Origin: a virus
Taxonomy: Duplodnaviria; Caudoviricetes
Virus record (IMG/VR): IMGVR_UViG_3300032237_000716
Location: 1 to 42,564 of that record
Length of the DNA: 42,564 bases
Direction: 5' to 3' (one strand)
The notes under the pieces were generated by a model. The model saw only the letters and a list, made by a program, of their open reading frames with translations. It had not been told where the DNA came from and ran no database searches. Shown one piece after another: positions 3,975 to 40,753 of this stretch (its first letter is position 1; each line of letters begins with the position of its first letter). A program made the position numbers and the translations under genes.

Positions 3975-3992
3975 TGCTACACAGGTGTAGCA
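3975..3992. promoter_or_regulatory. Palindromic operator-like box TGCTACAC-AG-GTGTAGCA, the best copy of the genome-wide TVCA-N4-TGBA motif
   Basis: Perfect 8-bp inverted arms in the capsid gene leader; related boxes occur at about 11 other gene starts. Confidence 0.6.
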
Positions 3993-7554: not shown

Positions 7555-7764
7555 TCAGCCCCTCCCGGTGTCGAAGGAGGGCGGGTAGACCGTGGGGTCG
7601 TCCGAATTGTTGGTCAGCAGCTCAGATCGGAGCCAACGCACCACCTGAACCGCACCGATTTGCTGCTGGATCTCTTTGTCCGTGGCCTCCGGGTGCGGGG
7701 CGATGTCGGGCCATAGCGCCATCGCCTTTTCGACCAGCTCCTCTGCGTTGACGGGCTTCAGCAT
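7555..7764 (-). CDS. Small hypothetical protein (gp6.5-like position)
   Basis: 69 aa with IGAVQVVRWLR; tightly packed between neighbours. Confidence 0.65.
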   Translation of the reverse strand: MLKPVNAEELVEKAMALWPDIAPHPEATDKEIQQQIGAVQVVRWLRSELLTNNSDDPTVYPPSFDTGRG

Positions 7765-7790
7765 TACAGGGCTGTAGAACTTGCCCCATG

Positions 7791-8549
7791 CTACGGGGTG
7801 CCGTCAGGTGGAGACCACAGGATTGGCAGTTCTCGATCCTCGTCATATTCGCCAGATCGAAGAATGCGGGCCAGCCGCACTTGGGTGATGGCATCCTTGC
7901 GAGTCAGGCCGGCCTTATCGAAAGCCTTCAGCACGGCCGCCCACATCGCTGCGGCATCGGGCTGTCCGGCCAGGATGCCCTCCGCCTTGACCTTGCCGAT
8001 GCCAGGGCAGCCGGGGTAGTTGTCCGTGGTGTCCCCGATCAGCGCCTGCGAGAACACATTCAGATCGGCCTGATGCTCGGAAACCTCCATTAACTCCGTG
8101 CCTCGAAGGTGCCGGCCGGGAATCCCCAACAGGTCTTTGTCCTCGCTCACGATCACATCACCAGGGCGGCAGAGGATGCCCATCACATCGTCGGCCTCGA
8201 CCTCGGCCAGCATGGCGATGTTCCATCCCCGCACCTCTCCGGCGGCGATCACCCACTGGATCAGCTGGCTGTAGCCGGCCGGCTTGCGGCTGGCCTTGCG
8301 GTTCGCCTTGTAGGCGCCGAAAAGGCCGTAGCGGAAGCTGGCGGCAGTGCCGAGGCACAAATGCAGCTGGTGGTCGGGCAGCGCATCACGGACGGATGCA
8401 AGGAAGTCCTGGAAACGGGCCTTGGCTTCGCCGTGGCGGCACGCATAGGTCCAGTCATCCGGTGCCCACTCGATCTCGTATTCGGACACGGCGGTGCAGC
8501 GGCGGAGATAGAGCTCCGCATCCACCAAAGCCCTGGGTTGGTCGGTCAC
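7791..8549 (-). CDS. 5'-3' exonuclease (T7 gp6-like)
   Basis: ALVDAE, FRY..FGAYKANR, EADDVMG, SEDKDL and GDTTDNYPGCPGIG motifs; GTG start at 8549 preceded by GGAGGT. Confidence 0.93.
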   Translation of the reverse strand: MTDQPRALVDAELYLRRCTAVSEYEIEWAPDDWTYACRHGEAKARFQDFLASVRDALPDHQLHLCLGTAASFRYGLFGAYKANRKASRKPAGYSQLIQWVIAAGEVRGWNIAMLAEVEADDVMGILCRPGDVIVSEDKDLLGIPGRHLRGTELMEVSEHQADLNVFSQALIGDTTDNYPGCPGIGKVKAEGILAGQPDAAAMWAAVLKAFDKAGLTRKDAITQVRLARILRSGEYDEDRELPILWSPPDGTP

Positions 8550-8830
8550 GACGCCACCTCCGCCGGCACCGGGCGACCCCGCAGCCAGTCCTGAACACGC
8601 TGCAGCGCGTCGGGCGGGACGAATTGGGAGCGGAACGGAAGCCAGCGCGATCCGTCCCATTCGCCATCGGGCATCCATGCGGCGCATTGGTCCAGAAACT
8701 TCCGCCTGCTGTTGTGACGCTCAAACGTCACAAGCCACTGCCCCCTGCAGGGCCCAAGCCCAGGCCGGGCAGTCACGAGGATGCGGCCCATGCCGATCTT
8801 TTCATTCAGGATTGTGTAGGTATCAGGCAT
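8546..8830 (-). CDS. Hypothetical protein
   Basis: ATG at 8830 (MPDTYTIL), overlapping neighbouring start and stop codons. Confidence 0.6.
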   Translation of the reverse strand: MPDTYTILNEKIGMGRILVTARPGLGPCRGQWLVTFERHNSRRKFLDQCAAWMPDGEWDGSRWLPFRSQFVPPDALQRVQDWLRGRPVPAEVAS

Positions 8831-9051
8831 CAGAGGACGGGGGTGTCGTTGTTGTGGCGGTTCCGGTATGCCTCCAGGTCGCGGAAGAACATATCGGCGA
8901 AGCGTGGATGAGCGTCCAGAAAATCCCACGTGGGCAGAGTGAACTCGGCGTGCGGTGGCAGGTCGTGGTTGAACTGTTCGACCGACCAATACCCAGCGAG
9001 CAATCCGCGCTGCAGGATGTTTCGGATCTGGTCTTTAGGCAGCAGAGGCAT
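8830..9051 (-). CDS. Hypothetical protein
   Basis: ATG at 9051 (MPLLPKDQIRNILQRGL), coupled to neighbours. Confidence 0.6.
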   Translation of the reverse strand: MPLLPKDQIRNILQRGLLAGYWSVEQFNHDLPPHAEFTLPTWDFLDAHPRFADMFFRDLEAYRNRHNNDTPVL

Positions 9052-9562
9052 TGGACCCCTGCCGCTGCTGTCCCTCCTGCAGATACTCGACCCAGTCCTG
9101 CCGTGAAAGGCTCTGGGAATCCGAAGCGGCAGCCGGCAGCAGGCGCTGCCCGTCGCCGCCGGCTGCCACCAGGCTGTAGGCGGCGGGATTCTCGGCGCCA
9201 TCCGGCGGGGGCGAGGCCAGCCCCGACGGCAGCATGGCCAGCTGCTGCCGCGTTGGCTGGAGCGATCGAGGCAGGTCTTCTTTAAATCCCCACGCTCGAT
9301 TCGGCACTCCCGAATGGCACCGATAGAGCGGCACCATCAGCTGCCGCCATGTCGGGAACCGCAGGAACTCACCGGTGGCTCCTTGGATCCAGCGCTCGCA
9401 AGCCCAGAGGAACTGCGGTGTGCTGACCTCCGGGAAGTCAGTGCTGAATGACACAAACTTCAGCTTGAAATCCTCGGTGCTCCAAGTTGCGTCTGCCCTG
9501 GTCCTGATGTGGCGCTCGATCATGCGGCAGCCACGGGTGAAGGCCTCCGGGTCAAGCAGCAT
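9035..9562 (-). CDS. Putative helicase loader (lambda P / SPP1 G39P-like)
   Basis: Helical N-domain ending FLWACERWI...RFPTWRQL; immediately downstream of an initiator-like gene. Confidence 0.45.
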   Translation of the reverse strand: MLLDPEAFTRGCRMIERHIRTRADATWSTEDFKLKFVSFSTDFPEVSTPQFLWACERWIQGATGEFLRFPTWRQLMVPLYRCHSGVPNRAWGFKEDLPRSLQPTRQQLAMLPSGLASPPPDGAENPAAYSLVAAGGDGQRLLPAAASDSQSLSRQDWVEYLQEGQQRQGSNASAA

Positions 9563-10160
9563 CTGTCTTCTCCAGCATGTCCCGGATCGCCGCGGCGGCC
9601 GGATCGCCCGCAGGGGCGGTGGCCGGCGGGGGCGCTGAGGCGATGCCGCGCAGGTACTCAGGCTTCAGGGCCTGCCAGCCGTGCTCGATGCCGGCATCCA
9701 CCAGGGCGCGGGCGTTCCAGTGCATGCCCTGTTGGCACAGGGTGCCAACCCGATTGGCGGACAGGGTGAAGGCAGCCTGGGTCCAAGTGGCCGCGCGGCG
9801 GTGCTTGCCCCAGCGGCTTTCATTCCACCACTTGAGCAGGCCAGCCATCAGCTCTGGAGGCAGGCCCAACCTCTCCAGCCAGGGCTCGTCACCAGCGATC
9901 GGATGCAACCGATCCGGGGCGGGGCCGGCGGCCCGCCTCCGGGGTGCGGCCGGTGCTGGCAGGGCCGGCTTCGGATCGGGCACGGCGGCCAGGGGGACCG
10001 GCTGCCAGGCGCCATCCTGGAAAGCCTCGATCCGCTGGATGGTGGTGAACGCTTTGCCGCACCCGCGGCAGGCATGGCGGCGGCGGATGGCGTTCTCTCC
10101 CTGGGAATCGCGGGTTTCGAGCACCCGATTGTGAGGATGGCCGCAGTGGGGGCAGTTCAT
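9552..10160 (-). CDS. NrdR-type Zn-ribbon protein fused to a phage replication-initiator-like C-terminal domain
   Basis: MNCPHCGH..RVLETRDS...IRRRHACRGCGKAFTT is an NrdR N-terminus; then a Pro/Ala linker; then WW..R....WT..A...LVDAGIEHGWQAL. Confidence 0.6.
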   Translation of the reverse strand: MNCPHCGHPHNRVLETRDSQGENAIRRRHACRGCGKAFTTIQRIEAFQDGAWQPVPLAAVPDPKPALPAPAAPRRRAAGPAPDRLHPIAGDEPWLERLGLPPELMAGLLKWWNESRWGKHRRAATWTQAAFTLSANRVGTLCQQGMHWNARALVDAGIEHGWQALKPEYLRGIASAPPPATAPAGDPAAAAIRDMLEKTDAA

Positions 10161-11221
10161 CAGACCTTGCTCCAGTCGATCGTGATGGCCGGGTGGAGGG
10201 TGCCGGTTATCAAGGCATCGACGACATCGCTGCGGTTCAAGCATCCGATTACCACACTCAGCCACCGACGCATCCGGCGCTTGGCTTCGTAGCCGCTTTC
10301 CGCGGTCGATGTATCGATCGCAGCGACTTGGGCGAGCGGCGCTGGCATGGTCGCGGGCGGTTGCGGCGCCTCCGCCGGAGTGATCGCCAGCAGGGCCTCC
10401 CCCTCCAGCAGGGCGACCACCGCCTCGGAGTCGGCGGCCCTGGCCTCCGCCGCTGCGGCCCTGGCCTTGGCTTCAGCCACCTTCTGCTCGGCCTCCTGGA
10501 TCGACAGCAGCGCGACAGCATCGGCCTCCTCCTGCGCCTTGCGAGCCGCTTCGGCGATGGCTTCCTGCTGTGCCTTGATGCGTGCGTCCTCGGCTTCCTT
10601 CCCCTGCTGGATCCGCTGCTGCTCGCGCAGCTGAGCCAACTCGGCGGCAGCGGCATCGTTGGCCAGGGCCTTGGCGTGGGCGGCTTCAAGGGTGCGGATC
10701 GTCTCCAGCAGGGCAGCGGCAGCCTCGTCCTTGAACTCCTCCAGTCCGTCGATGTTGACGGCATTGGCGTATCTGAGCTGAATGGCCAGGGACTCGGCGC
10801 TGGCGCCAAACGGCACCCGGCCATTTTTCGTGATGGTCTGGATCACTTCCCGATGCCCCGCCACCCGATCGGCCTCGGCATTGGTGATGGCATCGAGCGC
10901 ATCCTGGTGCGGCTTGATCAGCGCCTCTACCTGGTCCTTGAGCTCACTGGCCTGCTCATCGACCTTGCGGCCGTAGGCCAATGCGTAGGACTTGGCATCG
11001 GTGCGAGCCAATTCAATCCGGCTCTTGAGCTTGCGCTGGGCAAACACATAGGACCGGGCTTCCTTGTTGCCGGCCTTGGTGCTGTAGTCAAAGACTGCCT
11101 CGGCAGCCTTCTCCTTGGCCTCCTTGATGTCGCTCAGCAGCACATCAAGCTGGCTGATGACGATGGCCTTGGGCGCCGTGGCCAAGGCCTCGGCTTCGGG
11201 GGGTTGTGCGGTGGTGGTCAT
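10160..11221 (-). CDS. Coiled-coil phage protein of unknown function
   Basis: ATG at 11221; A/E/K-rich helices; FDYSTKAGNKEARS resembles a protein family of temperate phages. Confidence 0.7.
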   Translation of the reverse strand: MTTTAQPPEAEALATAPKAIVISQLDVLLSDIKEAKEKAAEAVFDYSTKAGNKEARSYVFAQRKLKSRIELARTDAKSYALAYGRKVDEQASELKDQVEALIKPHQDALDAITNAEADRVAGHREVIQTITKNGRVPFGASAESLAIQLRYANAVNIDGLEEFKDEAAAALLETIRTLEAAHAKALANDAAAAELAQLREQQRIQQGKEAEDARIKAQQEAIAEAARKAQEEADAVALLSIQEAEQKVAEAKARAAAAEARAADSEAVVALLEGEALLAITPAEAPQPPATMPAPLAQVAAIDTSTAESGYEAKRRMRRWLSVVIGCLNRSDVVDALITGTLHPAITIDWSKV

Positions 11222-11685
11222 TTCGGTTGGTTGAGAACGTGATGGGCGTAGACGGCAACGGCAAGCGCTGCCCACATATCCTTTTTGATTCCGTAAGTCG
11301 GGCCGGGATTCTTCTTGACACCGGCGGGGCCCAGCAGATCAATCAATGCCTGGCGAACATTGGAATCCCTGGCCCGGTTACTGCCGCATAGATGCAGCTT
11401 GATGTCCTTGCGGAAGTAGCGGGCCATCAGGTCCGCGTGGACATAGGCCTCCTCGAAGCGACCGATCCAAGTGCAGGTCTCGAAAACGTCGGCTCCCACG
11501 GGCATCCCGTAGGAGGCAATCATTTCGATTGCTACATGGGGGAAAGGGTAATCCGTGTTGCCACGTCTTAGGGTGCGGACTATCTCCTTGTTGTCCTGAA
11601 TTTCGGCAGCAATGATCCTGCGCTCAGGACTCAGCCATACGACCCCGGACATCTCGGGACCGGGGTCGATGGCCATGATGTTCAT
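11218..11685 (-). CDS. RuvC-like Holliday junction resolvase
   Basis: IMAIDPG, VAIEM, IGRF, IKLHLCG and DMWAALAVA motifs (RNase H fold). Confidence 0.8.
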   Translation of the reverse strand: MNIMAIDPGPEMSGVVWLSPERRIIAAEIQDNKEIVRTLRRGNTDYPFPHVAIEMIASYGMPVGADVFETCTWIGRFEEAYVHADLMARYFRKDIKLHLCGSNRARDSNVRQALIDLLGPAGVKKNPGPTYGIKKDMWAALAVAVYAHHVLNQPK

Positions 11686-12011: not shown

Positions 12012-12213
12012 TGGCTCCCCCCTCGCGACGCTTGATTGCATCGACCTCCTTCCGCACTTGGCCGCGGCAGAAGCTGTAGAGCTCATCGCTGGTCGAATGT
12101 GTCTGCTCGGCGGGCACCACCGCTTGCGCCGAACATGAGATATCCACGTTTTCGTAGTTGCCTAGGTTCACCTTGGCGGAGAATGAACGCGTGATCTTGA
12201 TTTCTTGGCTCAC
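12004..12213 (-). CDS. Small conserved-type phage hypothetical protein
   Basis: KVNLGNYENVDIS motif; GTG start overlaps the ssb stop. Confidence 0.65.
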   Translation of the reverse strand: MSQEIKITRSFSAKVNLGNYENVDISCSAQAVVPAEQTHSTSDELYSFCRGQVRKEVDAIKRREGGANA

Positions 12214-12860
12214 CAGGGCACCTCTTCAGTGCTGGCGGGGCCTTGAGCAGCATCGAATCCGAACGGATCCGCAGCAGCAGCAGGGGCCAGGGCGGTGGCG
12301 TCCACTCCCTCCTCGGGCGGGCCAAAAATGTTCGGATCGCAGGCCTGCATGGTGTAGGGAACGTGCTGAAGCACGCGAACCATTTGCAGCTGCGCCGTCA
12401 GTCCTTTGCCGCCATCGGGGTTGTCCCAGAGGTAAAGGGAATAAGCAATCCTGCAGACAGAACCGTTGCCGATTGCTACATCAACTGGCCACGGGTTTCC
12501 TTTGGAGTCCGTAACCAAGGGTGCGGGGAGCTCGGTGCCACGGGCGGTTTTCGTATCACGGCTGAAAGTGATCCTGACCAGACCGGTAGGGGTTTCAATG
12601 CCTTCACTGTTGACGGTTGTTTCGCGCTTCCACGGCTTTCCGTTTTGGCCGTACTTGGCGTTGCCGCCGAAGTGGTCCATGAACGCTTTGTGCAGGGAGC
12701 CAATAAACAGCTTTGATCCAGGGTCCTGTTCGGGGTCAGCTTGAAGCAGCACAATTCCGTACTGCATTTTTTCGCCCTTCTTGTTCTTGACAAGTTTGGG
12801 CTTGAGAACGTTTGCAAACAAGACCTCGCCGGCCGGGGCGACCAGCGTTTCGGATGCCAT
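12210..12860 (-). CDS. ssb: Single-stranded DNA-binding protein (T7 gp2.5-like)
   Basis: PAGEVLFANV, IGNGSVCRI, KGLTAQLQMVRVL motifs; acidic tail ending in an aromatic residue (EEVPW). Confidence 0.88.
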   Translation of the reverse strand: MASETLVAPAGEVLFANVLKPKLVKNKKGEKMQYGIVLLQADPEQDPGSKLFIGSLHKAFMDHFGGNAKYGQNGKPWKRETTVNSEGIETPTGLVRITFSRDTKTARGTELPAPLVTDSKGNPWPVDVAIGNGSVCRIAYSLYLWDNPDGGKGLTAQLQMVRVLQHVPYTMQACDPNIFGPPEEGVDATALAPAAAADPFGFDAAQGPASTEEVPW

Positions 12861-12920
12861 GCTCTGCAGGGGTGTAGGACTCCCGGATACTAGGGCATCC
12901 ACTAGCGCTGCCGCTAGTGC

Positions 12921-15329
12921 CTAGCTGAACAGATACAGGTTGCCGCCGATCTCTTCGATCTCCAGCGCCCCACGCGGTGGAGGCGGCGGCAGCGCCTTAA
13001 GACCTGCGCTGCAGCGGATCTCCTCGGCGATTGCCTCCAGCCAGTCGGTGGCATAGAGGGCCCGGAACTCGTCGAGCAAAGTCTTCTGCAGCCAGCTGGC
13101 ATTGGCCGGATCGGTGGCGAAACAGTCGTGGTTGGTCAGCAGCGGCGCCCTCTGCGCTCCAGCCCTGTAGGCCACGGCGTGCACCATGGCCGCATCGAAG
13201 CTATGCACCAGGTTGGCGGTGATGCTGGCGTTGGTCTTCCTGGCTGAGAGCTCCCCGTCCGGCGGGTCTTCCTCGAAGGTCACGGCTGCGAGCTTGCCGA
13301 GGAGGTGAGTGCGGATCACGCTTTTGCTGGGCGTCGGCCGCCCCACCTGCATTGGCCACCCCATTGGCGTGGTCCACCGGATCTGCTGCTGGTGGCGGCC
13401 GACCACCTGGCGGCCCACATCGCAGAGCCAGCGGCGGAGCTGCATCAGGGAAGATGTTTCGGCGGCGAGCACCATCCGCAGCCTCGATTCCAGATAGCTG
13501 CTGGGCCGGTAGATCCGGCCCGCCCAATCATCGACGGGGCCCAGCCGCTGCTGCAGCTGATCCCTGATGCCATCGGCCACGGTCCGGGAGGTGGAGCCGA
13601 ACGGCGTGTGCATCACGGCGGCCTTCACCCAGCTGCGATCGATGCCGAGATTCAGCCAGCTGGCGGCCAGCTGGTGGGTCTCGGCATCCCCGCAATTCAG
13701 ATCGATCTCCAGCCGTTGCCGCAGGCGCTCCACCACGGCGGAATAGAGATCGTTCGGCCCGGTGCCGCAGACATTGCAGAGCTCGGCCATCGCTCGATCC
13801 CGGAGCAGGGTGGCAATGATCCCGGCGCCGGAGCAGGTCTGGTCCAACCGGATGGGCACCCGGAGCCCTTCCTCTGGATTCGACCAGGCCCGTGCCAGCT
13901 GCAGGAACTGCCACGGCTGCTTGGCCCTGCGCCACAGGTCGGCCTTGCCGATGGGGTCCGCGGCAATGGCCTCGAGCCGCCCCAATTCCTCCATGCCCCA
14001 GCTCCATCGAGCTCCCCAGCTGCTGCGCGTCAGGCCCCAGTGCCCCGCCGCTGCCGTCAAGATCCAGTGCTCTTCGCGCAAGCCACATCCCCCAGCGCCA
14101 AACCGCAGCAGCGCCTTCTGGTGATCGGGGCCCTGGTGCGTGAGTCCACGGTTTGCGGTGAACGCCCGGCCCCGGAAGTCGAGGAAATGGGCCTGATAGA
14201 TCGGCCGGCCCACCAGCGCCTCGGCTGTCTGCAGAGCCCGCTCGATCGCCAGCCGCCTGCAGCTGTTTTCTCGCAAGTCCTGGTGGTGCCGGGCCTGGTT
14301 GCGCCGCCAGGCATCCTGCACATCCGGAGGCTCGCTGGTGGGGAACTGCCCCGCATCGGGAACGGGGTCCCTCTCAACCGGGAACAGGCCGGGGATCCCC
14401 CGGTCCCAGGCCTCCCGCTGCACCCGCAGCATCCACGGGTCCAGTTCCAGCTGCTGCCGCTGGAGGATGTTGACGGCGGCCAGCTGCGGACCGATCCGGC
14501 CCGACAGGTAGCCGATAGCCGCGTGGTCCCGCGCCGCCCGGATCTGCACCACCGGGGAGGTGTTGGCCAGGTGGCCCCCTCCCACCAGCCCTTCCCAGGG
14601 GATCGGCTCGATCACCATCGGCCCCCGGTTCGGCCGAAGACTGCGGGGAGGATGGCGCCGGATGAAGTCCAGGGCCTTGGGTGAGGGCAGCACCCGCCAC
14701 TGGGCGCGCCGGTTGGGCTGGTCGCTCTTGTCGAGGAGCACCAGCCCGGTCTTGCCGCGCACCACCTCGAGCAGCAGCAGTCCCACGGTCGCCCGCTCCT
14801 GCCGCGTCCAGATTGGGTTGGATCCCTCGATGGGCCGGGCGGCCGCCTTCATCACCGCCTTGCGCTTCTCCGCCGTGGTGCCCTGAAGCAATCGCTCCAG
14901 GCTGGCGGGGGCTCGCTTCTCGATCTCGCCGGCCTTCACTTCGGCATCCACGGCCAGGCCGATGGCCAGGGCCAGCCCCTGGAAGCTGACGGCATGGGAA
15001 AGGCGATCCAGGATCGTGACCAGGGCCACCGCCGCGATGCGCTGCGGACTGCCCAGGGCGGCCACCAGCGGCAGGGCCCCATACCCAGGGCCGCCCAGCT
15101 GGGGGTTATCGCCCCAGCGGTAGAGGATCGCCTCGATCTCCCGGGCCACGGGATCGGCGAACTGCTGAAACAGGGCGGTTCCGTATTCGGTACAGGACTC
15201 CCGGCGATACCGGCGGAGCACCTGCCGCATCACTTGGGCCCGCTGCTGCGCGTTGGTGGCCTCCTGCCATTCCAGTCCCTGCTGGAGGTCCCTGTCCACC
15301 TTGGTGGATTTGCTGCTTGCCGGATTCAT
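12921..15329 (-). CDS. Single-subunit T7-type DNA-directed RNA polymerase, with Phe at the motif B Tyr position
   Basis: 802 aa; DFRGR, motif A DQTCSG, motif B RSWVKAAVMHTPFGS, ANLVHSFD, motif C HDCF. Confidence 0.96.
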   Translation of the reverse strand: MNPASSKSTKVDRDLQQGLEWQEATNAQQRAQVMRQVLRRYRRESCTEYGTALFQQFADPVAREIEAILYRWGDNPQLGGPGYGALPLVAALGSPQRIAAVALVTILDRLSHAVSFQGLALAIGLAVDAEVKAGEIEKRAPASLERLLQGTTAEKRKAVMKAAARPIEGSNPIWTRQERATVGLLLLEVVRGKTGLVLLDKSDQPNRRAQWRVLPSPKALDFIRRHPPRSLRPNRGPMVIEPIPWEGLVGGGHLANTSPVVQIRAARDHAAIGYLSGRIGPQLAAVNILQRQQLELDPWMLRVQREAWDRGIPGLFPVERDPVPDAGQFPTSEPPDVQDAWRRNQARHHQDLRENSCRRLAIERALQTAEALVGRPIYQAHFLDFRGRAFTANRGLTHQGPDHQKALLRFGAGGCGLREEHWILTAAAGHWGLTRSSWGARWSWGMEELGRLEAIAADPIGKADLWRRAKQPWQFLQLARAWSNPEEGLRVPIRLDQTCSGAGIIATLLRDRAMAELCNVCGTGPNDLYSAVVERLRQRLEIDLNCGDAETHQLAASWLNLGIDRSWVKAAVMHTPFGSTSRTVADGIRDQLQQRLGPVDDWAGRIYRPSSYLESRLRMVLAAETSSLMQLRRWLCDVGRQVVGRHQQQIRWTTPMGWPMQVGRPTPSKSVIRTHLLGKLAAVTFEEDPPDGELSARKTNASITANLVHSFDAAMVHAVAYRAGAQRAPLLTNHDCFATDPANASWLQKTLLDEFRALYATDWLEAIAEEIRCSAGLKALPPPPPRGALEIEEIGGNLYLFS

Positions 15330-15439: not shown

Positions 15440-15484
15440 CAGCGGTTTTTAAGTCCGCTGCGTATACCATTCCGCCATGCCCCC
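15440..15484 (-). mobile_element. attP core: 5' half of tRNA-Leu(UAA)
   Basis: GGGGGCATGGCGGAATGGTATACGCAGCGGACTTAAAA gives the 5' acceptor strand, D arm and TAA anticodon loop; no T arm follows; about 300 bp downstream of int. Confidence 0.85.
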
Positions 15485-15790: not shown

Positions 15791-16798
15791 TCACCCTGCC
15801 TCCAGCGCTTCCACGCATGCCGAGAGGGCATCGGTGGAGAGGTGTAGGTAGCGCTTCACGGCAGCCAGGGAGCTCCAGCCCCCGAAGGTCATTAGCTGCA
15901 CCAGGCTGATCCCCTTGCTGGCCAGCTTCGAAGCACAGGTGTGTCGGGTGGTATGGATCGTGAGGGTTTGGTCGTGCGCGAGGCCGATGTGCTCCTTGGC
16001 TCGATCGAACAGGCGCCGATAGCGGTCGTAGCTGTAGGGGAACACTCGGGCGTTCGGCACCGGCACGCCGCAGGCCATCACCGCATCGAGGGCCCGGGCG
16101 GTCAGCGGCACCGTGCGGGCCTGGCCGTTCTTGGTCTTCCAGAAGGTGGCGCGGCCTCGATCCAGGTCCAGGTCCCCCCAGCGCAGCCGCTCCACCTCTC
16201 CCCAGCGGGTGCAGGTTTCCAGCAGAAACACCAGCACCAGGGCCGCGGCGGGCTCCTCGATCGCCTGGAAGTATTCACACAGCCCGTCCCGCTCGGAATC
16301 GGACATCACGCGGTCCTTCTCGCCGCCGGGCTTCAGCTGCTTGGGCATGGCCGGCCGGGTGGTGATGCGGCCGTGCAGCTGGGCATCGCTGAACATCGCC
16401 TTGAGGGCGGAGAGCTTCCGGTTGATGGTGGCCGGCCGGTTGCCCTGGCTTCGCAGCTTGGCGCGCCACTGCTCCACCGCCGGGGCGTTGATCGATTCGA
16501 GCGGTGTTGAGGGCCCGAAGAACTCCACCGCCGCAGCGCTGTAGATGGCAGCCGTTCGCTCGTAGGCCATGCCAGCCCAGCGCACCTGTAGCGATAGCTG
16601 CCGGGCTTGGGCAATGGTGAAACCCCGGGCGTTCACCACTGGCTCGGCCATCAGATGGTCCCTCAACTCGCGGCGCTTCTTCTCGGCCTCAGCCTTGGTG
16701 CGGCCGCTGGCTTGCCGGCGCTTGCCGTCGATCGTGACGTCAGCAATCCAGCGGGTCTGGCCGCTGGCATCAATTCGTTTTCGGACTGCTCCGGTCAT
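15791..16798 (-). CDS. int: Tyrosine integrase
   Basis: N-terminal arm-binding-like domain; catalytic R (TCTRWGE), K (KTKNG), HTTRH, GW and Y (KRYLH) are all present. Confidence 0.95.
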   Translation of the reverse strand: MTGAVRKRIDASGQTRWIADVTIDGKRRQASGRTKAEAEKKRRELRDHLMAEPVVNARGFTIAQARQLSLQVRWAGMAYERTAAIYSAAAVEFFGPSTPLESINAPAVEQWRAKLRSQGNRPATINRKLSALKAMFSDAQLHGRITTRPAMPKQLKPGGEKDRVMSDSERDGLCEYFQAIEEPAAALVLVFLLETCTRWGEVERLRWGDLDLDRGRATFWKTKNGQARTVPLTARALDAVMACGVPVPNARVFPYSYDRYRRLFDRAKEHIGLAHDQTLTIHTTRHTCASKLASKGISLVQLMTFGGWSSLAAVKRYLHLSTDALSACVEALEAG

Positions 16799-16819: not shown

Positions 16820-17137
16820 TCAAAGGCTTTTGATCTGGCGGAGGAGGGCCCGTCCCCGGGTTGACAGGGAAACCAGGAAGCGCCGCCGCTCCTCGGGGTC
16901 CTTTTCGACCTTGAGCAGGCGAAGCCCTTCTCGCCCGGTCCTGTGGACATCAGATAGCGCATTTACCGTCCGAGATACAGAGGCATTCGATAGTCCTAGT
17001 TGCCGCTCAATTTCGTCGTAAAGACATGGCTCTGACTGCGCAGCTACTAAAAAGACCTGTACGTGGTGGAGGGGGAGCGCGGTGGGCTCCAGAACTGAGA
17101 AAGCGGCCAGAGCGGCAGCAAGTCGATCCAAATCCAT
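16820..17137 (-). CDS. MarR-family winged-helix regulator (candidate repressor)
   Basis: LGLSNASVSRTVNAL helix-turn-helix and KDPEERRRFLVSLSTRG wing. Confidence 0.88.
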   Translation of the reverse strand: MDLDRLAAALAAFSVLEPTALPLHHVQVFLVAAQSEPCLYDEIERQLGLSNASVSRTVNALSDVHRTGREGLRLLKVEKDPEERRRFLVSLSTRGRALLRQIKSL

Positions 17138-17316
17138 GGGCTAGTGGGGACACTAGAGTGAACACTAGTGCACCCCTGTAGCCCGATCCTGGAACCGTTA
17201 CGGGAACGCAGCAGCCACGCTGCAAAGTGAAAAGGGCCCTTACGGGTGGGGGCTTCGATTGAAAGAATCAGGATCCTGGTTTCCATGTTTATGCCTGTTT
17301 TGCATGGGTGCATTTA

Positions 17317-18415: not shown

Positions 18416-19384
18416 TCAGGCCTCCCCTGCATCAGCGGCCGGGGCTTCCGGTGCGATCAGATCGGCCGCCTGCCTGGCCTGGCTCAGCACCTGAAACAGG
18501 GTGCGCGGCCCCTCCTGCAACACCTCGACCCAGTTCGCCAGATAGGCGGCATGGTTCTCAAACTCGCTGCCGATCTCCAGCCGCCGGCACAGCAGCACGG
18601 CGCCAAGCTCGGCCACCAGCTCCTCTCGGGCGTAAGCCTTGCTGCCGAAGGTGCCGCCCATCGGCCGCGCCAGCCGGTCAGCGTGGCCGGTGCTGTGGAT
18701 CTGCTCGTGGGCCCACGTTGCAGCGAACGCCTCGCGGGACTCGAAGGCCTCGGGGTTGGGCATGCTGATGCGATCCAAACCGGGCAGGTAGCAGTGCTGC
18801 GCCCCGCCGTAGGCGGTCTGCACCTCCCAGGCCTCGAGGACGGCTTCGGCAGCCTCCAGCCGGGCCGCGGGCTCCTTGGGTTTGGTCTGGCCGATGGCCG
18901 CGGCGATCCGCTCGGCCAGTGCCGCGGCGGTCTCGCCGGTGGCGCCCACCAGGTCGGCGGCATTGAACACCGGGACCACCTTGTAGGAGGTCCAGGCCTT
19001 CAGCACGGTTTCAGCGTTGCCGGTGTCGGGGTTGATGCCCTCCTCCTCGCGCTTGTTGAGCTGTGGCCGCAGGATCCGGGCGGCGGTGCAGCCCTTGCCG
19101 GGATACCAGCCCTCAGCCTTGGCCTGCGCACCACCCAGCCATAGGGGCAGGCTGTGGCCACGCATCAGGCCTCCCAGCTCCAGCAGCAGGGGATTCCCCC
19201 CGCGGTATTCGGCGCCGGTCATAAGGTTGCGATGGTGGCCGGCCTCTCCCTGGAACGGGCGGCGCCATGGTGCGGTTCCCTGCTCCAGCAGGGCCACCAG
19301 ATCAGCGCACAGCTTCTCCTCTGGCTTGGGCCCGTCGTAGGCCTTTCTGCCCTTGGTGCGGGGCTTTGTTGGTGTCGTTGTCAT
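18416..19384 (-). CDS. ardC: ArdC-like antirestriction ssDNA-binding protein with a zincin-like metallopeptidase domain
   Basis: GTAPWRRPF, YRGGNPLLL, VFNAAD, HEQIHSTG (HExxH), YAREELVAELGA and HAAYLANW motifs. Confidence 0.92.
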   Translation of the reverse strand: MTTTPTKPRTKGRKAYDGPKPEEKLCADLVALLEQGTAPWRRPFQGEAGHHRNLMTGAEYRGGNPLLLELGGLMRGHSLPLWLGGAQAKAEGWYPGKGCTAARILRPQLNKREEEGINPDTGNAETVLKAWTSYKVVPVFNAADLVGATGETAAALAERIAAAIGQTKPKEPAARLEAAEAVLEAWEVQTAYGGAQHCYLPGLDRISMPNPEAFESREAFAATWAHEQIHSTGHADRLARPMGGTFGSKAYAREELVAELGAVLLCRRLEIGSEFENHAAYLANWVEVLQEGPRTLFQVLSQARQAADLIAPEAPAADAGEA

Positions 19385-19465: not shown

Positions 19466-20056
19466 TCAAGCCCCCAGCGCGTAGCGAATGGCATCGACAG
19501 CGCGGCCCCGGCGCCGGCTTGCCGTCATGGGCGAGGTGCCGAGGATGGCCGCGGCCTCGCGGATGCTCCGCCCCTCCAGAACCAGCAGGCGCAGCGCTGC
19601 AGCATCGGCAGCCGGCAAGCGCTCCACCATCTGCGCCACTTCAGCGGCCAGAGCGTCGCGGGGAGCGTCCTCCTCCGGCTTCGGGGCCTCCAGCAGGTCA
19701 AGGAAGGAAGGCCCTCCCTCCACCGTTGGGGCGTCTAGGGAGGCGTGGCCCAGGGGCCAGCCGCCGGCCTCATGGGCACGGCGGGACACGCGAACCAGCC
19801 GGACGCGATCCCGGACGTAATGGCGGAGCGCTCCGGCGATGGAGCACCGAAGGAAGTGGGGCGGATCGGTTTCAGGGGCAACGCGGGCGGCGGCTTGCAC
19901 CAGGGCAAAGCGCGCCTCCTGCTGCAGGTCCTCGAGCTCGGCCAGGCCTCGCAGCCGGCGGGCGGCGGAGCGGGCCAGGGCATCGGCCTCGGGCAGGTAA
20001 CGGCGCACGAGGCGGTCACGGGTCGCCATGGCGGCGGCCTGGGTAGTGGTGTCCAC
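19466..20056 (-). CDS. Sigma-70 family sigma factor (SigF/SigB-like, region 3 largely missing)
   Basis: RDRLVRRYL, EDLQQEARFALVQAA, IAGALRHYVRD..RLVRV and SLD motifs; region 4 SIREAAAILGTSPMTASRR. Confidence 0.88.
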   Translation of the reverse strand: MDTTTQAAAMATRDRLVRRYLPEADALARSAARRLRGLAELEDLQQEARFALVQAAARVAPETDPPHFLRCSIAGALRHYVRDRVRLVRVSRRAHEAGGWPLGHASLDAPTVEGGPSFLDLLEAPKPEEDAPRDALAAEVAQMVERLPAADAAALRLLVLEGRSIREAAAILGTSPMTASRRRGRAVDAIRYALGA

Positions 20057-24245: not shown

Positions 24246-24532
24246 GCCGCCCCCTCCACCGGAGGGGTGGGCAGCGCCACCAGGCGGCGCTTTTCCTTGA
24301 TGCGGCTGCTGTCGATGTTGCTGCTGATCTTTGCCTTGAGCTTTTCCCTCTGCGAATCACCGATTGAGGAGGTGATTCCGTTGTGCTTGAGCACCGCCAG
24401 GGCCAGGCGCTTGTCCTCGTCGGTCGGCACTCTCACACTGCCGTCTTTGAGAACACGGACATCAAGGGCCTCGTCGATCTCTTTCAGCAGCTTGGCCTGG
24501 ATCGACTCCAGTTGTTCTTGGTGGTCGGCCAC
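24242..24532 (-). CDS. Probable terminase small subunit (T7 gp18-like)
   Basis: EQLESIQ...DKRLALAVLKHNGIT resembles the gp18 A..FLK.N.I motif; GTG start at 24532. Confidence 0.6.
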   Translation of the reverse strand: MADHQEQLESIQAKLLKEIDEALDVRVLKDGSVRVPTDEDKRLALAVLKHNGITSSIGDSQREKLKAKISSNIDSSRIKEKRRLVALPTPPVEGAA

Positions 24533-24563
24533 GTTTGCATGGATGCAGACTTCTTGCCCAATC

Positions 24564-25091
24564 ATGCCTTCCCTCGTCGGACCAACCAAGACGCCGCACC
24601 AGTTCGGTTTCAAGCCGGGTGACTTCCACCTGGTGATCAATGACGATGCGGAGACGCTGAAGGCCTTCGATTTCTACGGCAAAAAGCTGTTCACCATCCC
24701 CTGTCTGGCGCGGGGGCAGGGCAACGATGACGAGTGGCAGTCGCCCAACACCGACACCCCGCCAGGCCTCTACAAGGTGGGCAGCGTCTGGCGCGATTAC
24801 GAGCGGCTGGGCGATTTACCGAAGGCCGTCCCTCCCGATCTGCTGCCCTACGGCTGGTTCACGCTCGATCTTGAGGAGCTGGAAGCCCAGGAGCGCCGTT
24901 ACGGGCGTGCTGGCATCGCCATTCACGGCGGCGGTTCGGCGTTGGGACAGTGGGGCTGCTGGCAACCGCGGCAGCCCTTGCTGGCAACCCATGGCTGCGT
25001 TCGGGTTCACAACGCCGACCTGCGGGACCTCATCGCGCCCCTGCTGGCCAAGGGCACGGTGTTTGCGTCGGTCTACCAGGAAGGCGCTTAG
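24564..25091 (+). CDS. L,D-transpeptidase (YkuD-fold) protein, probable endolysin
   Basis: DTPPGLY, GIAIHGG and THGCVRVHN catalytic motifs. Confidence 0.85.
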   Translation: MPSLVGPTKTPHQFGFKPGDFHLVINDDAETLKAFDFYGKKLFTIPCLARGQGNDDEWQSPNTDTPPGLYKVGSVWRDYERLGDLPKAVPPDLLPYGWFTLDLEELEAQERRYGRAGIAIHGGGSALGQWGCWQPRQPLLATHGCVRVHNADLRDLIAPLLAKGTVFASVYQEGA

Positions 25092-29825: not shown

Positions 29826-29883
29826 GGCAAACTCTGCAGCCGTGTATCACCCCATTGTGGGGCCGCCGCCGCCGGCTACAAGG

Positions 29884-36300: not shown

Positions 36301-37487
36301 CTGATGGTCGTTGGGGCAAAGCCTTGGTCGGCCGTTGACGGTGGCGCCGTTGCCGCTGGGGCCTCTGCGGGGGTGACACTTGGTTGCTGCTGCGCACCAC
36401 GGCCCCAGCGGGCCAGCACCGCATCGCGGGCTTGATTGGGAGTCTGCGGGATCTGGACCGGCGCCGGCTTCTGCAATGCCTGCTCGGTGAAGCGCTGCGG
36501 CCCCTCGATGTCCTCCACCAGGCCCCGGGCCTTCAGCTTTTCCCCGGCTGAGACGTGAGCGGTGTTGGCTCCGGCCGCCCGCTGGAATCGGCGGATATTG
36601 CCGAAGCCTTTGCCCACGGCCCTGGCGCCAGCCGATCCAGCCAGGCCCATCAGCTCGCCGCCGATGATGTTGGGCAGAAGGCTCTTGACGGCCGCCGTCA
36701 CCCGGTCATCCTTCGCCGGGTCCACCGCCAGCGGCACGCCGTCGATGCCGGTGAGGGCCCCCACCATGTTGCTCATGTTGCCCTGGGTGGAGTCCTGCAG
36801 CAGGGCCCCCAGGCCATGCGTCACGCCCAGCGCAGTGCCCCACCGCAGCCCCCTGGCGGCCCAGCTCGCGCCCTTGACGCCAGCGGCGAGGCCGTGGCCG
36901 ACAGCTCCACCGATTGGCAGGGTGCCGAGCTCGATGCCAGCCATGCGGCCCTGGTTGTCGATCACTCCGCGCTGCCCTTCGGTCAGGTCCTCCGGCTGCT
37001 TGGCCCCCAGTGCCTTGTAGCCGGCCCTGGTGAAGGCATTCAGCGCCTGCCCGGGGGGGGAGCGGCGAGCATCCGCGTACTTGCCAGGTGCCAGGATCTT
37101 CTGGCCCAGGGAGATCACACCCTCCCCTGCCGTCTGGATGGCGCCGTAAGTGCCTGCCGCCTGCAGTTGACGCACCACGGGCGAGACCGCGCCGGCTGCG
37201 GTTATCAGGCGGGCAATGGGGTTTGCATTTCCGATTCCAGCCAGCCACGGGTTCCGCTGGACCGTCCCCGGCTTTTGCGTCCCCTGGAGACTGAGCACCT
37301 GTTTCCCCGCCCACCGCAGCTCGTTGGCCACCGCATGCGCCGGGTTCCCCCACCATGGCGTTGGAGCCTTCTTGGCCGGGGCCTTCGGCTTGGGGCCGGG
37401 GGTAGGTGGCGGCGGGGCGTGATCTTGCGAGTGGTCGTCGCCGACCAGTTGCCAGCGGCCATTCTTCTGGACGAGTGTTTGTGGCAT
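33312..37487 (-). CDS. Large internal virion protein with a ParB/Srx-like domain
   Basis: 1391 aa; Gly/Ala-rich N-part; FQYK...WDP....VVEGHGR..LA.RL at about 35115-35475. Confidence 0.75.
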   Translation of the reverse strand: MPQTLVQKNGRWQLVGDDHSQDHAPPPPTPGPKPKAPAKKAPTPWWGNPAHAVANELRWAGKQVLSLQGTQKPGTVQRNPWLAGIGNANPIARLITAAGAVSPVVRQLQAAGTYGAIQTAGEGVISLGQKILAPGKYADARRSPPGQALNAFTRAGYKALGAKQPEDLTEGQRGVIDNQGRMAGIELGTLPIGGAVGHGLAAGVKGASWAARGLRWGTALGVTHGLGALLQDSTQGNMSNMVGALTGIDGVPLAVDPAKDDRVTAAVKSLLPNIIGGELMGLAGSAGARAVGKGFGNIRRFQRAAGANTAHVSAGEKLKARGLVEDIEGPQRFTEQALQKPAPVQIPQTPNQARDAVLARWGRGAQQQPSVTPAEAPAATAPPSTADQGFAPTTIRSTGPSQPWRDSFTGDGSQSPTISSTGPSQPWRERPRTDEASYQEWLRRNASNALVPTTPSGGGPDMPPRQPLPPLDELRGEGLADPWGMGPDPNSPVQQQLAAKAAAQAEPPAPAPAITEAAAPLDPSAYDPALPEVADVQKLVSQLDPAELQAVAVVGADGGPVLQHIEEVIASRPAPQPRPEISEAWAGVPTNSLSEIYLNGVGDLQPWSELLDKINHTTLTELSHPEASPRLSQLISDATGKAWPFDREDVINGIKALSAEGTTILPNRLSGDVRVMRVADLIAAPHEFQYKEGTDAKGVQIASHLRDVRKWDPNAEGVLEVFPDPRDGITKVVEGHGRRALAARLDIPTVPVKEVNATTVPGARSAGAISNISQGNGTPFDAAKFIKGTGMTDKAQLQAAGIALDRGFGRQGLALSKLPPDIFQEAVNNEPLFSWYVALGESGLDEPGMRGAYQVLKQRPKMHLSTFREVLDLADSMPTVKAADSDQTVLFGEETLKPMLQRAELVADVRAGLAKDRRLFGFMTRNADTLSEAGTTTIDTAAAGQRVADAQQALGLFDTLKNQAGPVGELLSKGAERIAQGENASIVAKQIQREIGDSIERELVNSGMKATQQELAPPPPPPAPIPEPDRAALEAHAIQRAIANGEVRPTEMQPLELPAAPSADIGAVQRELAAMDPTLPLEEQLPNMPATRQAAADELRLAAEHARQDAEIAWAAEKAAREAEGYDLLSLQEKKEQGLGADWVETESADEIFAKIDGILADMGDRGRRLAREGQKALNEAAGLVDQDMLQGPNKVVPGPRVAGSVTPEVLPPEPTGSIADIFEQQARKMAESDARLYRRAGETIGNMRQGLKTLAEASGAPVFSLPPDLARASPRYGRNTLRFESDLDRAAYVLANEKTKGESKTAAKFRDALVAAGFDPGQVAAHGKTVKAAVKAVTRDTSGETVVVPVQDFAAGSPRLPLPEQQRQIEGTKTQIDGLQQKLNEGGCGT

Positions 37488-40400
37488 CAGGGCCTTCCGT
37501 TTTGGTTGGGATCAATGCGGATTCGGACGTCGCCAACGCCGCGGGCGGTGGAGCCATAGAGGCGGCTGAACGCCACGGGGGACAGGTCGATCACGCGATC
37601 CGCCGGCCGGGTCTTCGAGCCGCCCATTTGCCCGGTGTCGTTAGCCCACACCCGGATCTTTTTGCCGGTGGCTGCGTCTTCGACGATCAGCCACTTGTTC
37701 ATGTGGGAGCCCTTAAGGCTCCACTGGACCGCTGCCGTCATCTGATTGCCCGTGAACACCTCGCCGTTGGCGGTTCTGCCCCCCAGCGATCCGTCGCTGC
37801 CGCCGCTGCCGGTGTAGAAAGTCGCCCTGCCGGCGAGGGGCGGCCCCTTCCCGTCACCGCCGCCGCCACCACCACGGAACTCGACGTGGCCGCCGTGGGA
37901 GCCGGGGTAGTCGTTGACCACCCAGCCGTAGCGGGCCCCGTTCTTGCGGATCCAGGCGATCGAGCTGCCGTGAATGTCCATCGCGTTGCCCCCCAGGTGC
38001 TGGCTGCCTTCAACGCCGCCCACGGCAGCGTTCTTGGCGCGACTGCGCTGGGAGCTGGCGATATCGCTCGCCTTCACCTGGCCACCCGAATCCCGCACCA
38101 TTGCGGCAAACGCATTAGCCCCCTGCCGACTGAACACAGCAGGGCGGCCAGCCGAGTCCCTCATCCCAGGGATGGTGTAGCCCTGCCCCGTGTCGCCTGA
38201 GCTGCCAAGAACTGCGGGACCGCTGTCCCAGCGACTGGGAGACGGGTCACCCATAAAAGGGGCTCCGCGATCCCAGCCGCCTCCGCCACCACGGGCACGC
38301 ATCGAGATCGTGAATTGGCCAGGCGCCGCGCTGCGGGCACCGAACCTTGGCCACTCGGCGGCCGATGCCGGCATTGCCCCCGTGGCGGCATCCAGGGCCC
38401 AGCGGCCGAAGCTGCCCAGCGCTGACTGTCCCTGCGATGCCATCGACACCAGGTAGCGCTGTGGCGTCGTGACGGCGCTGCTCTGATCGTTCAGGCGCTT
38501 CATCGCTTCCGCCGGCACGTTGATCCCGTAGCGGGCCCCCTGGACCCGCAGGAACTCGGCCGGCGATGGCGCCAGCGCATCCATGGCGGCGCGCCTCAGC
38601 TGAGGGGAGAACCCGCCACCATTCGCGGCGTTCACCAGCTCTTTTCCGACTGCCTCCTTGCTCAGAATCGACTCGTTCTGGTAGTTGCGGAGCCGCTGCT
38701 GCCGGTTGGGCATCGCATCGAGCTGTTTGGTGTCGAAGGTCGGAGGCGCGGGAGGCCCCGCCGGTTTGCCGCTGGGCTTGGGGGCATTCGGATCCGGCGC
38801 CATGGCATTGAGCCCCGGCAGCGAGGGGGCGCCGGAGACGCGCCCGCCGGGGAACAGCAGATTGAACGCCGCCTGGTTCTTGGCCGCAAAGTCTGCGGCG
38901 GCACGGCTCGCCACTTCGTAGGTCTCCCCACGGTCCAATGGTGCCCCCTTCTTTGCGGCGGCAGCGGCGACAGCGCTGTTCACCGCTGGGTACATGGCCG
39001 CGTTGAACCGCCTGACCGACTCGGCCAGGTTGGCGGCCCGCTCGGTCTTGGCGTTCATGCTGCCGGCCCGCTGGAGCTCCTTGTAGTCGGCGCCGTAGTT
39101 GGCGGCCAGCGCTGCGTGCTTGGCGGCTTCCACCGCCCGGTTCACCTCGGCAGGTTCAAGGGTGGCGGACTTGCCATCCTTGGAGCGGATGATTGATTCG
39201 AGCTTGGAAGCCACCTCTCCAAACTTCGCCGGATTGATCTGCCCACGCAACGCCGCCAGATCCCGCCGCAGCGCCGCCGGATCAAAGTTATCCCCCCAGG
39301 CATCGCGGGCCCTGGCCAGCACCTCTTCGCCGGCATCCGGGGCATAGCTCTTGCCCTTGATCTCGATCTGAAGGCCCAGCTGATCGTTGATCGCCTTCAG
39401 CAGTGGCGCCACGGGAGCGTTGGGGTTCTGCTGCCGGAACCGCGCCAGGAGCTGATTGGAACGCTCGACCATCGCGGCCTGATCGAGGGGGCCCTCATTC
39501 CCGGGCTGATAGATGCCTGCCACCGCCGGCAGTTTCCCGGCAGCCGGGGCGCCATTGATCAGCATGTCCGAGAAGTTTGCGACCCCCTGCTCCTCGTCGC
39601 GCTTCTGCACCGCCCAGCCGTATTTCATCTCGGTGTCGGCGGCCGTCTCCGGGAACATCTGCGCCAGCGTTTGCTGCACCGGCCGCTTGGCCACCGGATC
39701 CCAATAGGTGGGGCCCGCCTTGATGCGATCGACAATGTTCTTGAACACCGGATCCTGCCCGTAGGCCGCCTCGGTGCGCAGTGCCTTGTAAACCGTTTCG
39801 GCCAGCTTCAGTGGCTGCCCGCCGTTCCCCATCAGGCCAGAGTGGTAAGCCAGGATTTTGCTGGCCTGGGTCATCACTTCGGCCTGCGCGTCCTGGTTGA
39901 AGGTGGGGCTCTTCCGATCGAGCATCACCCCAGAGCTGCCGATCGTGACCTGGGCGGCCCCGCTCAGCGCCTGCCGCTGCACATCCATGATCAGGCTGCG
40001 GATCTGCCCCCCGGCCACCCCCGGCAAGGTGGCATCCAGATACTTCACCCGGTCCTCGCGGGCCCTGTTGCTGATCTTCTCCTCGGCCGCAGTGATCTTC
40101 GGCAGGGCGTAATTCAGGAAGCCCGGCGATGCGGTGTCGAGCCCGTACTTCTCGGTCAGCTGCTTGATGTAGCCCGCCTTCAGCTGCGCCAGTGCCGCCT
40201 GCCCCTTGTCCGGCGAGAGGAACATGGTCGGCCCCATCTCCTCGTAGGCGCCCAGCATCCCGGCATCAGCCTCGGCGCCGGCCAGCTTTGCGAGGCCCCG
40301 CTGCACCCCCTGCTCCCGATAGGGATTCAGCAGGTTCATCAGGATCCCCCCGCTCGGATCGCGCTTGCTCAGCTCGCGGTTGGCCTTGGCGTAATCGAAG

Positions 40401-40753
40401 CTGCCGGCCTCGTTGGTCGCATCTGCCTGGCTAAGGGCCTTCAGGGCCATGTTCTTTGCGAAGACCTGCGCCTCCCCCTGCTGCGAGGCCCAGCCGGCGG
40501 CCCGCTCGCCCGCGCCCTGGAGCGCGTTGGTGATGTTGGCGTTGAATGGCGCGAGCGCTTGCGCCAGCTCCTGGAACCGGTTGACGCCGCCGTAGCTGGC
40601 CTGGTCTGGGCCTCGAAGCGTGGCGACCCCCTGCAGCTGGGGCATGGACGGCGGGCCCGCAATGGCGCCCGGCTGGACCTGCGCCGGCTGAATGAAGGCC
40701 GCGACCGGCTTGGCTTCCGGGTTGACCTGGCCGAGAGGGAGATTCGTTTCCAT
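37487..40753 (-). CDS. Internal virion protein (gp15-position) with C-terminal M15 peptidase and RlpA/DPBB domains
   Basis: SSQRS...SQHLGGNAMDIH...GARYGW...HVEF, followed by ATFY...TANGE...TAA...NDTG...IDLS. Confidence 0.82.
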   Translation of the reverse strand: METNLPLGQVNPEAKPVAAFIQPAQVQPGAIAGPPSMPQLQGVATLRGPDQASYGGVNRFQELAQALAPFNANITNALQGAGERAAGWASQQGEAQVFAKNMALKALSQADATNEAGSFDYAKANRELSKRDPSGGILMNLLNPYREQGVQRGLAKLAGAEADAGMLGAYEEMGPTMFLSPDKGQAALAQLKAGYIKQLTEKYGLDTASPGFLNYALPKITAAEEKISNRAREDRVKYLDATLPGVAGGQIRSLIMDVQRQALSGAAQVTIGSSGVMLDRKSPTFNQDAQAEVMTQASKILAYHSGLMGNGGQPLKLAETVYKALRTEAAYGQDPVFKNIVDRIKAGPTYWDPVAKRPVQQTLAQMFPETAADTEMKYGWAVQKRDEEQGVANFSDMLINGAPAAGKLPAVAGIYQPGNEGPLDQAAMVERSNQLLARFRQQNPNAPVAPLLKAINDQLGLQIEIKGKSYAPDAGEEVLARARDAWGDNFDPAALRRDLAALRGQINPAKFGEVASKLESIIRSKDGKSATLEPAEVNRAVEAAKHAALAANYGADYKELQRAGSMNAKTERAANLAESVRRFNAAMYPAVNSAVAAAAAKKGAPLDRGETYEVASRAAADFAAKNQAAFNLLFPGGRVSGAPSLPGLNAMAPDPNAPKPSGKPAGPPAPPTFDTKQLDAMPNRQQRLRNYQNESILSKEAVGKELVNAANGGGFSPQLRRAAMDALAPSPAEFLRVQGARYGINVPAEAMKRLNDQSSAVTTPQRYLVSMASQGQSALGSFGRWALDAATGAMPASAAEWPRFGARSAAPGQFTISMRARGGGGGWDRGAPFMGDPSPSRWDSGPAVLGSSGDTGQGYTIPGMRDSAGRPAVFSRQGANAFAAMVRDSGGQVKASDIASSQRSRAKNAAVGGVEGSQHLGGNAMDIHGSSIAWIRKNGARYGWVVNDYPGSHGGHVEFRGGGGGGDGKGPPLAGRATFYTGSGGSDGSLGGRTANGEVFTGNQMTAAVQWSLKGSHMNKWLIVEDAATGKKIRVWANDTGQMGGSKTRPADRVIDLSPVAFSRLYGSTARGVGDVRIRIDPNQNGRP

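Follow-up and report, generated by a model that had tools for sequence, protein, structure and literature searches.

A natural phenylalanine at the Tyr639 position of a T7-type RNA polymerase in an S-SRP02-like phage genome

T7 RNA polymerase (RNAP) senses the ribose of an incoming nucleotide through Arg632 and a Mg-bridged Tyr639 (PMC9836923; also PMC4223216 and PMC6535458). The engineered Y639F enzyme falls from a 120-140-fold to a 5-7-fold selectivity for rATP over dATP (PMC9836923), and the equivalent substitution loosens 2' selectivity in the RNAPs of SP6 (Y631F; PMC13286181), Syn5 (Y564F; PMC4538805), KP34 (Y603F; PMC6834552) and VSW-3 (Y578F; PMC9624206). Across DNA and RNA polymerases the column holds Tyr or Phe (PMC4223216). 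A 2010 legend on the N4-like virion RNAPs of Pseudomonas phages LUZ7, LIT1 and PEV2 gives a natural Y678F in motif B (PMC3715699). The subject here is a natural Phe at this position in the T7-type RNAP of IMG/VR virus record IMGVR_UViG_3300032237_000716, analyzed over its whole stretch of 42,564 nucleotides (the window). No report of a natural Phe639 in T7-like, non-N4 RNAPs was met in the literature searched, which left out supplements, patents and most subscription papers, and none was found in the parts searched of two RNAP-mining papers (PMC11475235, PMC13029058).

The variant is recurrent, has a precedent in the N4-like enzymes and is uncoupled from missing replication genes. The reading favored here, with moderate confidence, is that of a transcribing S-SRP02-like phage RNAP with a predicted looser sugar check than that of T7, in a phage whose DNA is likely replicated by the host via a phage initiator and loader.

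The closest described phages belong to clade S, the S-SRP02-like phages without DNA polymerase, of which S-SRP02 also lacks a primase-helicase (PMC12695635). The clade S hallmark of having no DNA polymerase gene is found in the window as well. The nearest named RNAPs are those of the clade S cyanophages S-SRP02 (MW822601; 39% identity) and MedDCM S37-C6, S31-C1 and S38-C3 (34-38%) (PMC8790148, PMC12695635), with which the window groups in trees built from RNAP only. The lineage is one of freshwater T7-like phages, with cyanobacteria as the likely hosts.

Motif B and the catalytic residues

The polymerase gene and its landmarks are as follows.

12921..15329, minus strand: single-subunit T7-type RNAP, 802 aa (PHROG 414, E 1.6e-122; Pfam RNA_pol and RPOL_N; T7 RNAP fold)
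14166..14180, minus strand: DFRGR, with R388 equivalent to T7 R425
13827..13844, minus strand: motif A, DQTCSG, with catalytic D496 (T7 D537) and G501 (T7 G542)
13593..13637, minus strand: motif B or O helix, R565 to S579 (T7 R627-S641), from alignment
13620..13622, minus strand: Ala570 at the position of T7 Arg632, the second ribose contact (multiple alignment; role of R632 from PMC9836923)
13608..13610, minus strand: His574 at the position of T7 Thr636, in the close clade only together with Phe
13599..13601, minus strand: Phe577 codon TTC, equivalent to T7 Tyr639; relatives carry TTC or TTT
13194..13208, minus strand: VHSFD, with H709 equivalent to T7 H784
13119..13130, minus strand: motif C, HDCF, with catalytic D735 (T7 D812)

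The plus strand reads GAA at 13599-13601, giving TTC and Phe577 in RSWVKAAVMHTPFGS. Motif B aligns without gaps to T7 residues 627-641 (PDB 1aro), and in a multiple alignment F577 shares its column with T7 Y639 and Syn5 Y564; A570 stands opposite R632 and H574 opposite T636. Translation and alignment thus confirm the Phe codon and the gapless motif B that the initial annotation had read from the sequence; alignment likewise agrees with its description of DQTCSG, HDCF, DFRGR and VHSFD as intact and of Ala at the R632 position. Identical counterparts exist for T7 D537, D812, R425, G542, Y571, R627, K631, M635 and H784. The family pattern R-x3-K-x7-Y-G is broken only by Phe577 in place of Tyr, R565, K569 and G578 being present; the missed Tyr is the variant itself, and the assignment to the T7-type family stands. 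Identity to T7 RNAP is ~20%, and an AlphaFold model (pLDDT 89.5) finds its best match in T7 RNAP elongation complexes (TM ~0.8). Family A DNA polymerases have a Glu steric gate where T7 RNAP has G542. The window gives no match to PF00476 and keeps G501, and the G542 equivalent is present in 147/147 scored representatives.

Phe577 might also be the product of gene decay or loss of catalysis, with Tyr no longer of consequence, or of a sequencing error, and the departures of motif B from T7 at 632, 633, 636 and 639 could be taken in favor of this explanation. Several lines of evidence make this explanation highly improbable. Both catalytic Asp residues, K631 and R627 are invariant in a 42-sequence alignment, and dN/dS against 11 related genes is 0.16-0.24 (~0.2), with no stops. 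Phe is shared by 17 homologs and by independent contigs: those of the other runs X2, X4 and X5 carry TTC and those of X3 carry TTT, a check of the codon that rests on contigs rather than raw reads. Contigs of run X4 contain both alleles, Phe at depth 14.5 and Tyr at depth 4.2. The sequence in X1, possibly the run of origin, is identical to the window. These homologs and contigs, with their two codons, rule out a private mutation or a sequencing error.

Distribution and history of the Phe state

Among the 24 closest homologs 17 have Phe and seven have Tyr, and the next two outgroups, P0025 (59% identity) and P0026 (53%), have Phe. The close relatives are thus not uniformly Tyr; a uniform Tyr is what the initial annotation had named as fatal to its proposal. 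It had also allowed for a private or neutral mutation; the first half of that alternative fails on the same count, and a near-neutral, tolerated state still stands. Over a set of 101 homologs the 639 column holds 22 Phe, 78 Tyr and 1 Met, and in the best 150 representatives of the wider family it holds 5 Phe, 1 Met and 141 Tyr, with 3 partial sequences. At least six separate Phe groups appear on an RNAP tree with residue labels taken from the alignment, a tree that leaves out L292, for which no open reading frame (ORF) was recovered. A search of IMG/VR with the canonical motif-B pattern returned 21 Phe stretches, all of one lineage, versus an estimated ~2200 Tyr stretches, a figure extrapolated from 4 of 64 IMG/VR parts with Tyr matches unchecked. 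A metagenome scan with A5 as query gave 13 loci, 3 of them of the close clade; with P0026 as query it gave none. As judged from these sequence comparisons, Phe is an old, lineage-wide state under purifying selection.

The Tyr alleles of the close clade differ from the Phe alleles as a block (VGPYGG or FTPYGG), with 67% nucleotide identity there versus ~88% nearby. In trees of the N- and C-terminal parts the Tyr relatives form one clade, together with the Phe sequence P0015, nested in the Phe group. One earlier RNAP tree also nests Tyr within Phe, whereas the alignment-labelled tree and the mosaic middle part do not, and the approximately unbiased (AU) test does not reject Tyr as a sister group to Phe (p 0.11). 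Reversion from Phe to Tyr is the favored, not proven, history. Within the gene, residues ~400-480 are mosaic, at 57-82% identity to L002-L008 and L126 and ~90% elsewhere, a pattern pointing to recombination inside the RNAP gene.

Non-Tyr residues at 639 occur in 5/35 clade-S-like versus 1/112 other representatives (Fisher p 0.003, kinship uncorrected). R632 is lost in 33/35 versus 11/112 of these and M635 in 19/35 versus 1/112. An O helix already without Arg632, and often without Met635, may leave the Tyr hydroxyl less constrained, allowing the site to flip between Tyr and Phe. A second T7-like Phe lineage (L140-L160, with L143 and L159 near complete) reads KRIVMTKPFG and keeps R632 and M635; its motif makes this lineage the nearest natural counterpart of T7 Y639F. 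Further Phe sequences are P0032, P0037, P0069, P0153, P0150 and P0151, and P0073 has Met. At the H784 position P0150 carries Gln, and both P0025 and P0026 have the sequence FGA, with Ala at T7 S641.

A relaxed 2'-OH check in vitro is likely, a fair prediction by analogy, because the equivalent substitution has this effect in five engineered RNAPs (T7, SP6, Syn5, KP34 and VSW-3). A rival explanation is full compensation, with an enzyme as ribose-selective as T7 in which His574, H709, R388 and a reshaped Pro576-Phe577 helix end would check the 2'-OH and Phe would have no biochemical effect. His574 is a possible compensating polar group: it accompanies Phe in 17/17 close Phe homologs and is absent from every close Tyr homolog. 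The block-wise difference of the Tyr relatives and the presence of Pro638 in all Phe groups fit this idea too, and the natural Y678F of cultured N4-like phages shows viability (PMC3715699). On the other hand, the His is missing from P0025, P0026 and five further Phe groups, Pro638 is also found in 112/141 Tyr representatives, and the swap relaxed all five enzymes, including that of cyanophage Syn5, which itself has Pro638. Full compensation is therefore possible and rather unlikely. Pro638 as a required partner of Phe was dropped, its association being not significant given those 112/141 Tyr representatives.

Phe and the missing replication genes

The window spans an entire circular phage genome, its 42,564 bases including a 123-base end repeat (a 42.4-kb genome), and is classed as having direct terminal repeats and being 100% complete. 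Six-frame searches of this complete genome detect no DNA_pol_A, Toprim_2, DnaB_C or Prim-Pol domain, which bears out the earlier statement that it has no DNA polymerase or primase and extends it to helicase. The genes between the RNAP and the exonuclease, on the same strand, include the following.

12210..12902, minus strand: gp2.5-like single-stranded DNA-binding protein (SSB; phrog_112)
11218..11685, minus strand: Holliday junction resolvase (phrog_1770)
9552..10160, minus strand: NrdR-type zinc ribbon (Pfam Zn_ribbon_NrdR) with a conserved C-terminal domain
9035..9562, minus strand: 175-aa protein, likely a G39P-like helicase loader, from structure comparison of a model
7791..8687, minus strand: 5'-3' exonuclease, a gene called "DNA polymerase I" in S-SRP02

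The genes so named in S-SRP02 (L012, 22389-23129) and S37-C6 (L013, 20647-21378) encode the 5'-3' exonuclease only, and S-SRP02 has no PolA match. A 371-aa coiled-coil protein (phrog_1376; 10160-11275, minus strand) lies between the resolvase and the zinc-ribbon ORF and is patchy in the clade; one of its Atlas clusters bears Phage_T7_Gp5_9 (68% of members). It was considered as a hidden primase and rejected: it has no Pfam family, and its Atlas relatives are unnamed coiled-coil phage proteins.

The initial annotation had raised the possibility that the RNAP produces primers or mixed RNA/DNA in a phage that has neither primase nor DNA polymerase; in its strong form, the proposal is an enzyme selected to replace them. 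That PolA, Toprim, DnaB and Prim-Pol are undetected in the genome accords with this proposal. T7 RNAP itself primes at the T7 origin. A comparison of loci speaks to the proposed link directly. From 140 loci, 37 without the RNAP-to-exonuclease block and 20 duplicates were removed, leaving 83 distinct loci, none with PolA. The primase-less loci (67/83, the window included) comprise 58 Tyr and nine Phe, and the primase-bearing loci (16/83) are all Tyr. Every Phe locus of the clade that spans the block is thus primase-less (9/9), yet Tyr prevails at 58/67 of the loci that lack both primase and polymerase. The polymerase-less S-SRP02, MedDCM S37-C6 and S38-C3, and the clade C phage P-SCSP1b, also have Tyr, as does the RNAP of MedDCM S31-C1, compared for this residue only. 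PolA and Toprim are absent from two complete Tyr sisters (85-88% identity), as they are from the Phe genomes; in these two genomes the Tyr group, which sits inside the Phe lineage on the N- and C-terminal trees, shows no regained primase or PolA. Conversely, the unrelated Phe lineage L140-L160 has a primase/helicase next to the RNAP at 21/21 loci and PolA in 4/5 records, the single PolA-less record being 62% complete.

Phe is neither required for life without DNA polymerase or primase nor confined to such phages. Because 58/67 primase-less loci are Tyr and a Phe lineage has its own primase and PolA, the link of Phe to lost replication genes is rejected, failing in both directions. Moreover, RNA primers can be made without using dNTPs, and a loader-like protein occupies the primase slot. 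Selection for primer or mixed-chain synthesis as a replacement is accordingly very doubtful. Scarcely more credible is a natural "R&DNA" polymerase with a selected loose gate, whose mixed chains would act as origin primers or as RNase-resistant, partly deoxy transcripts and whose Tyr relatives would be reversions; if it existed, its mixed-chain primers would pass to the replisome of the host, which the G39P-like protein of the phage would have loaded. A milder version is considerably better placed and is judged probable: a wild-type T7-type enzyme that, with no engineering, would use dNTPs and 2'-F-NTPs as substrates in vitro.

The occupant of the primase slot suggests how the phage DNA may be copied. 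The zinc-ribbon and 175-aa pair (window 9035-10160) is present in 67/67 primase-less loci and 0/16 primase-bearing loci. Compared with 48,161 chains, the model of the 175-aa protein has SPP1 G39P as its top match (1no1_A, Z 5.7, rmsd 2.5, 67/67 residues). An Atlas lead points to G39P_N (0.91, a family on 34% of that cluster), and BFVD rows are weak and in the same direction; Foldseek against PDB gives no match, and Pfam and PHROGs give no family match of note. From its modelled fold the protein is likely a G39P-like helicase loader. The zinc-ribbon protein is likely, on weak sequence grounds, a replication initiator, and the pair likely recruits host DnaB and thereby host primase and Pol III. 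No report of a G39P-like gene in clade S was met in the same literature. This loader-like module, exchanged one-for-one with primase/helicase, provides a testable explanation of replication in clade S phages that have no polymerase or primase of their own.

Predicted function, phage setting and known systems

In the favored reading, a transcribing RNAP with a loosened sugar check, the enzyme would still transcribe the phage replication and virion genes; the full virion gene set lies downstream of the RNAP in the same orientation, which was counted for this role. Without the Tyr hydroxyl, the Mg/water bridge that reaches the 2'-OH in the pre-insertion state would be gone. Cellular rNTP pools exceed dNTP pools about tenfold or more. 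With such a ratio and a residual 5-7-fold preference for rNTPs, only ~1-2% deoxy residues would be expected, a level that short-lived phage mRNA could bear. The zinc-ribbon and G39P-like proteins would load host DnaB, and host primase and Pol III would copy the phage DNA.

Several points weigh against this reading. The Syn5 and VSW-3 mutants have lowered RNA yield (PMC4538805, PMC9624206), by analogy a cost that a natural carrier must offset. Phe fixed across ~47% divergence could be selected rather than tolerated, and His574, found with Phe throughout the close clade, may restore discrimination. No phage promoter was identified in the window, which offers a palindromic candidate site only. 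On the replication side, AAA lids match the 175-aa model at Z 5.3, within 1 Z of the G39P match, and only 1/39 zinc-ribbon proteins matches the O-like initiator phrog_678, a single weak match (E 0.005).

The following features lie around the RNAP and bear on control and integration.

12864..12877, strand unassigned: 14-bp palindrome just upstream of the SSB gene, candidate operator or promoter
15447..15482, minus strand: attP-like 5' part of tRNA-Leu(UAA), lying between the genes for integrase and RNAP
15791..16798, minus strand: tyrosine integrase
16820..17137, minus strand: MarR-like regulator (phrog_9665, weak MarR_2)

The attP-like stretch differs by 1 mismatch from tRNA-Leu(taa) in two bins titled Cyanobium and is matched in 3/5 genomes searched, a set that did not extend to other taxa; ARAGORN finds no whole tRNA in the window. 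Because the fragment matches two Cyanobium bins, the phage is likely a temperate phage of picocyanobacteria. A Cyanobium bin contains a Phe relative at 86% identity, on a contig of 44.8 kb. Integration at 15447-15482 would separate the RNAP from the upstream early region. That region encodes a sigma-70-type factor and an ArdC-like anti-restriction protein (19466-20056 and 18416-19384, respectively, both minus strand), which are unusual beside a T7-type RNAP.

The palindrome, CTACAS-NN-STGYAG, precedes the genes for SSB (12864-12877), a 69-aa protein (7764-7777), MarR (17168-17181), capsid (3977-3990) and tail fiber (29834-29847); a further copy (2710-2722) follows the capsid terminator. In a loosened form it occurs in the RNAP-SSB spacer at 27/102 loci versus 35/1583 windows inside RNAP; the pattern was derived visually from the window and relaxed once some relatives had been inspected, which makes its shuffle count circular. 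It is a candidate MarR operator or phage promoter. A sigma-70 promoter scan gave chance-level counts. Elsewhere, an L,D-transpeptidase (YkuD) domain protein (24267-25091, plus strand) adjoins the plus-strand terminase, and an internal virion protein (37487-40753, minus strand) carries peptidase M15 and DPBB domains.

The textbook ribose sensor in T7-type RNAPs is Tyr639, and Phe at this position is known in the family mainly as an engineered residue. The Phe lineages and their Tyr sisters, 83-88% identical, make a matched pair for studying how sugar fidelity is kept or given up. Natural Phe enzymes may serve as evolved scaffolds for the synthesis of 2'-modified RNA, perhaps avoiding the yield loss of the Syn5 and VSW-3 mutants, and the window RNAP is a candidate natural tool enzyme.

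Compared with known systems, the window RNAP shares with the engineered Y639F enzyme of T7 and its SP6, Syn5, KP34 and VSW-3 counterparts the fold, the column and the equivalents of R425, G542, K631, M635 and H784; unlike them it is natural and lineage-fixed, lacks R632 and carries His at 636 together with Pro at 638. The N4-like virion RNAPs are likewise single-subunit RNAPs with a natural Tyr-to-Phe change in motif B, but they are giant virion enzymes of another family, and the legend that records the change leaves the carrier phage unspecified (PMC3715699). S-SRP02 resembles the window in its gene order (MarR, integrase, RNAP, SSB, resolvase, zinc ribbon, exonuclease) and in the absence of DNA polymerase and primase-helicase, whereas all four named clade S members have Tyr where the window lineage has Phe. 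Clade C cyanopodoviruses such as P-SCSP1 also lack a DNA polymerase, and use of the host polymerase has been proposed for them (PMC9860041); unlike the window, P-SCSP1b keeps a primase/helicase and Tyr. The first 77 residues of the 175-aa ORF superpose on SPP1 G39P (PDB 1no1), and within the replication block it comes after an ORF for a likely DNA-binding protein, which recalls lambda O/P-type modules. Identity to G39P is 10% at Z 5.7, and the window has no phage helicase, which leaves host DnaB as the putative target.

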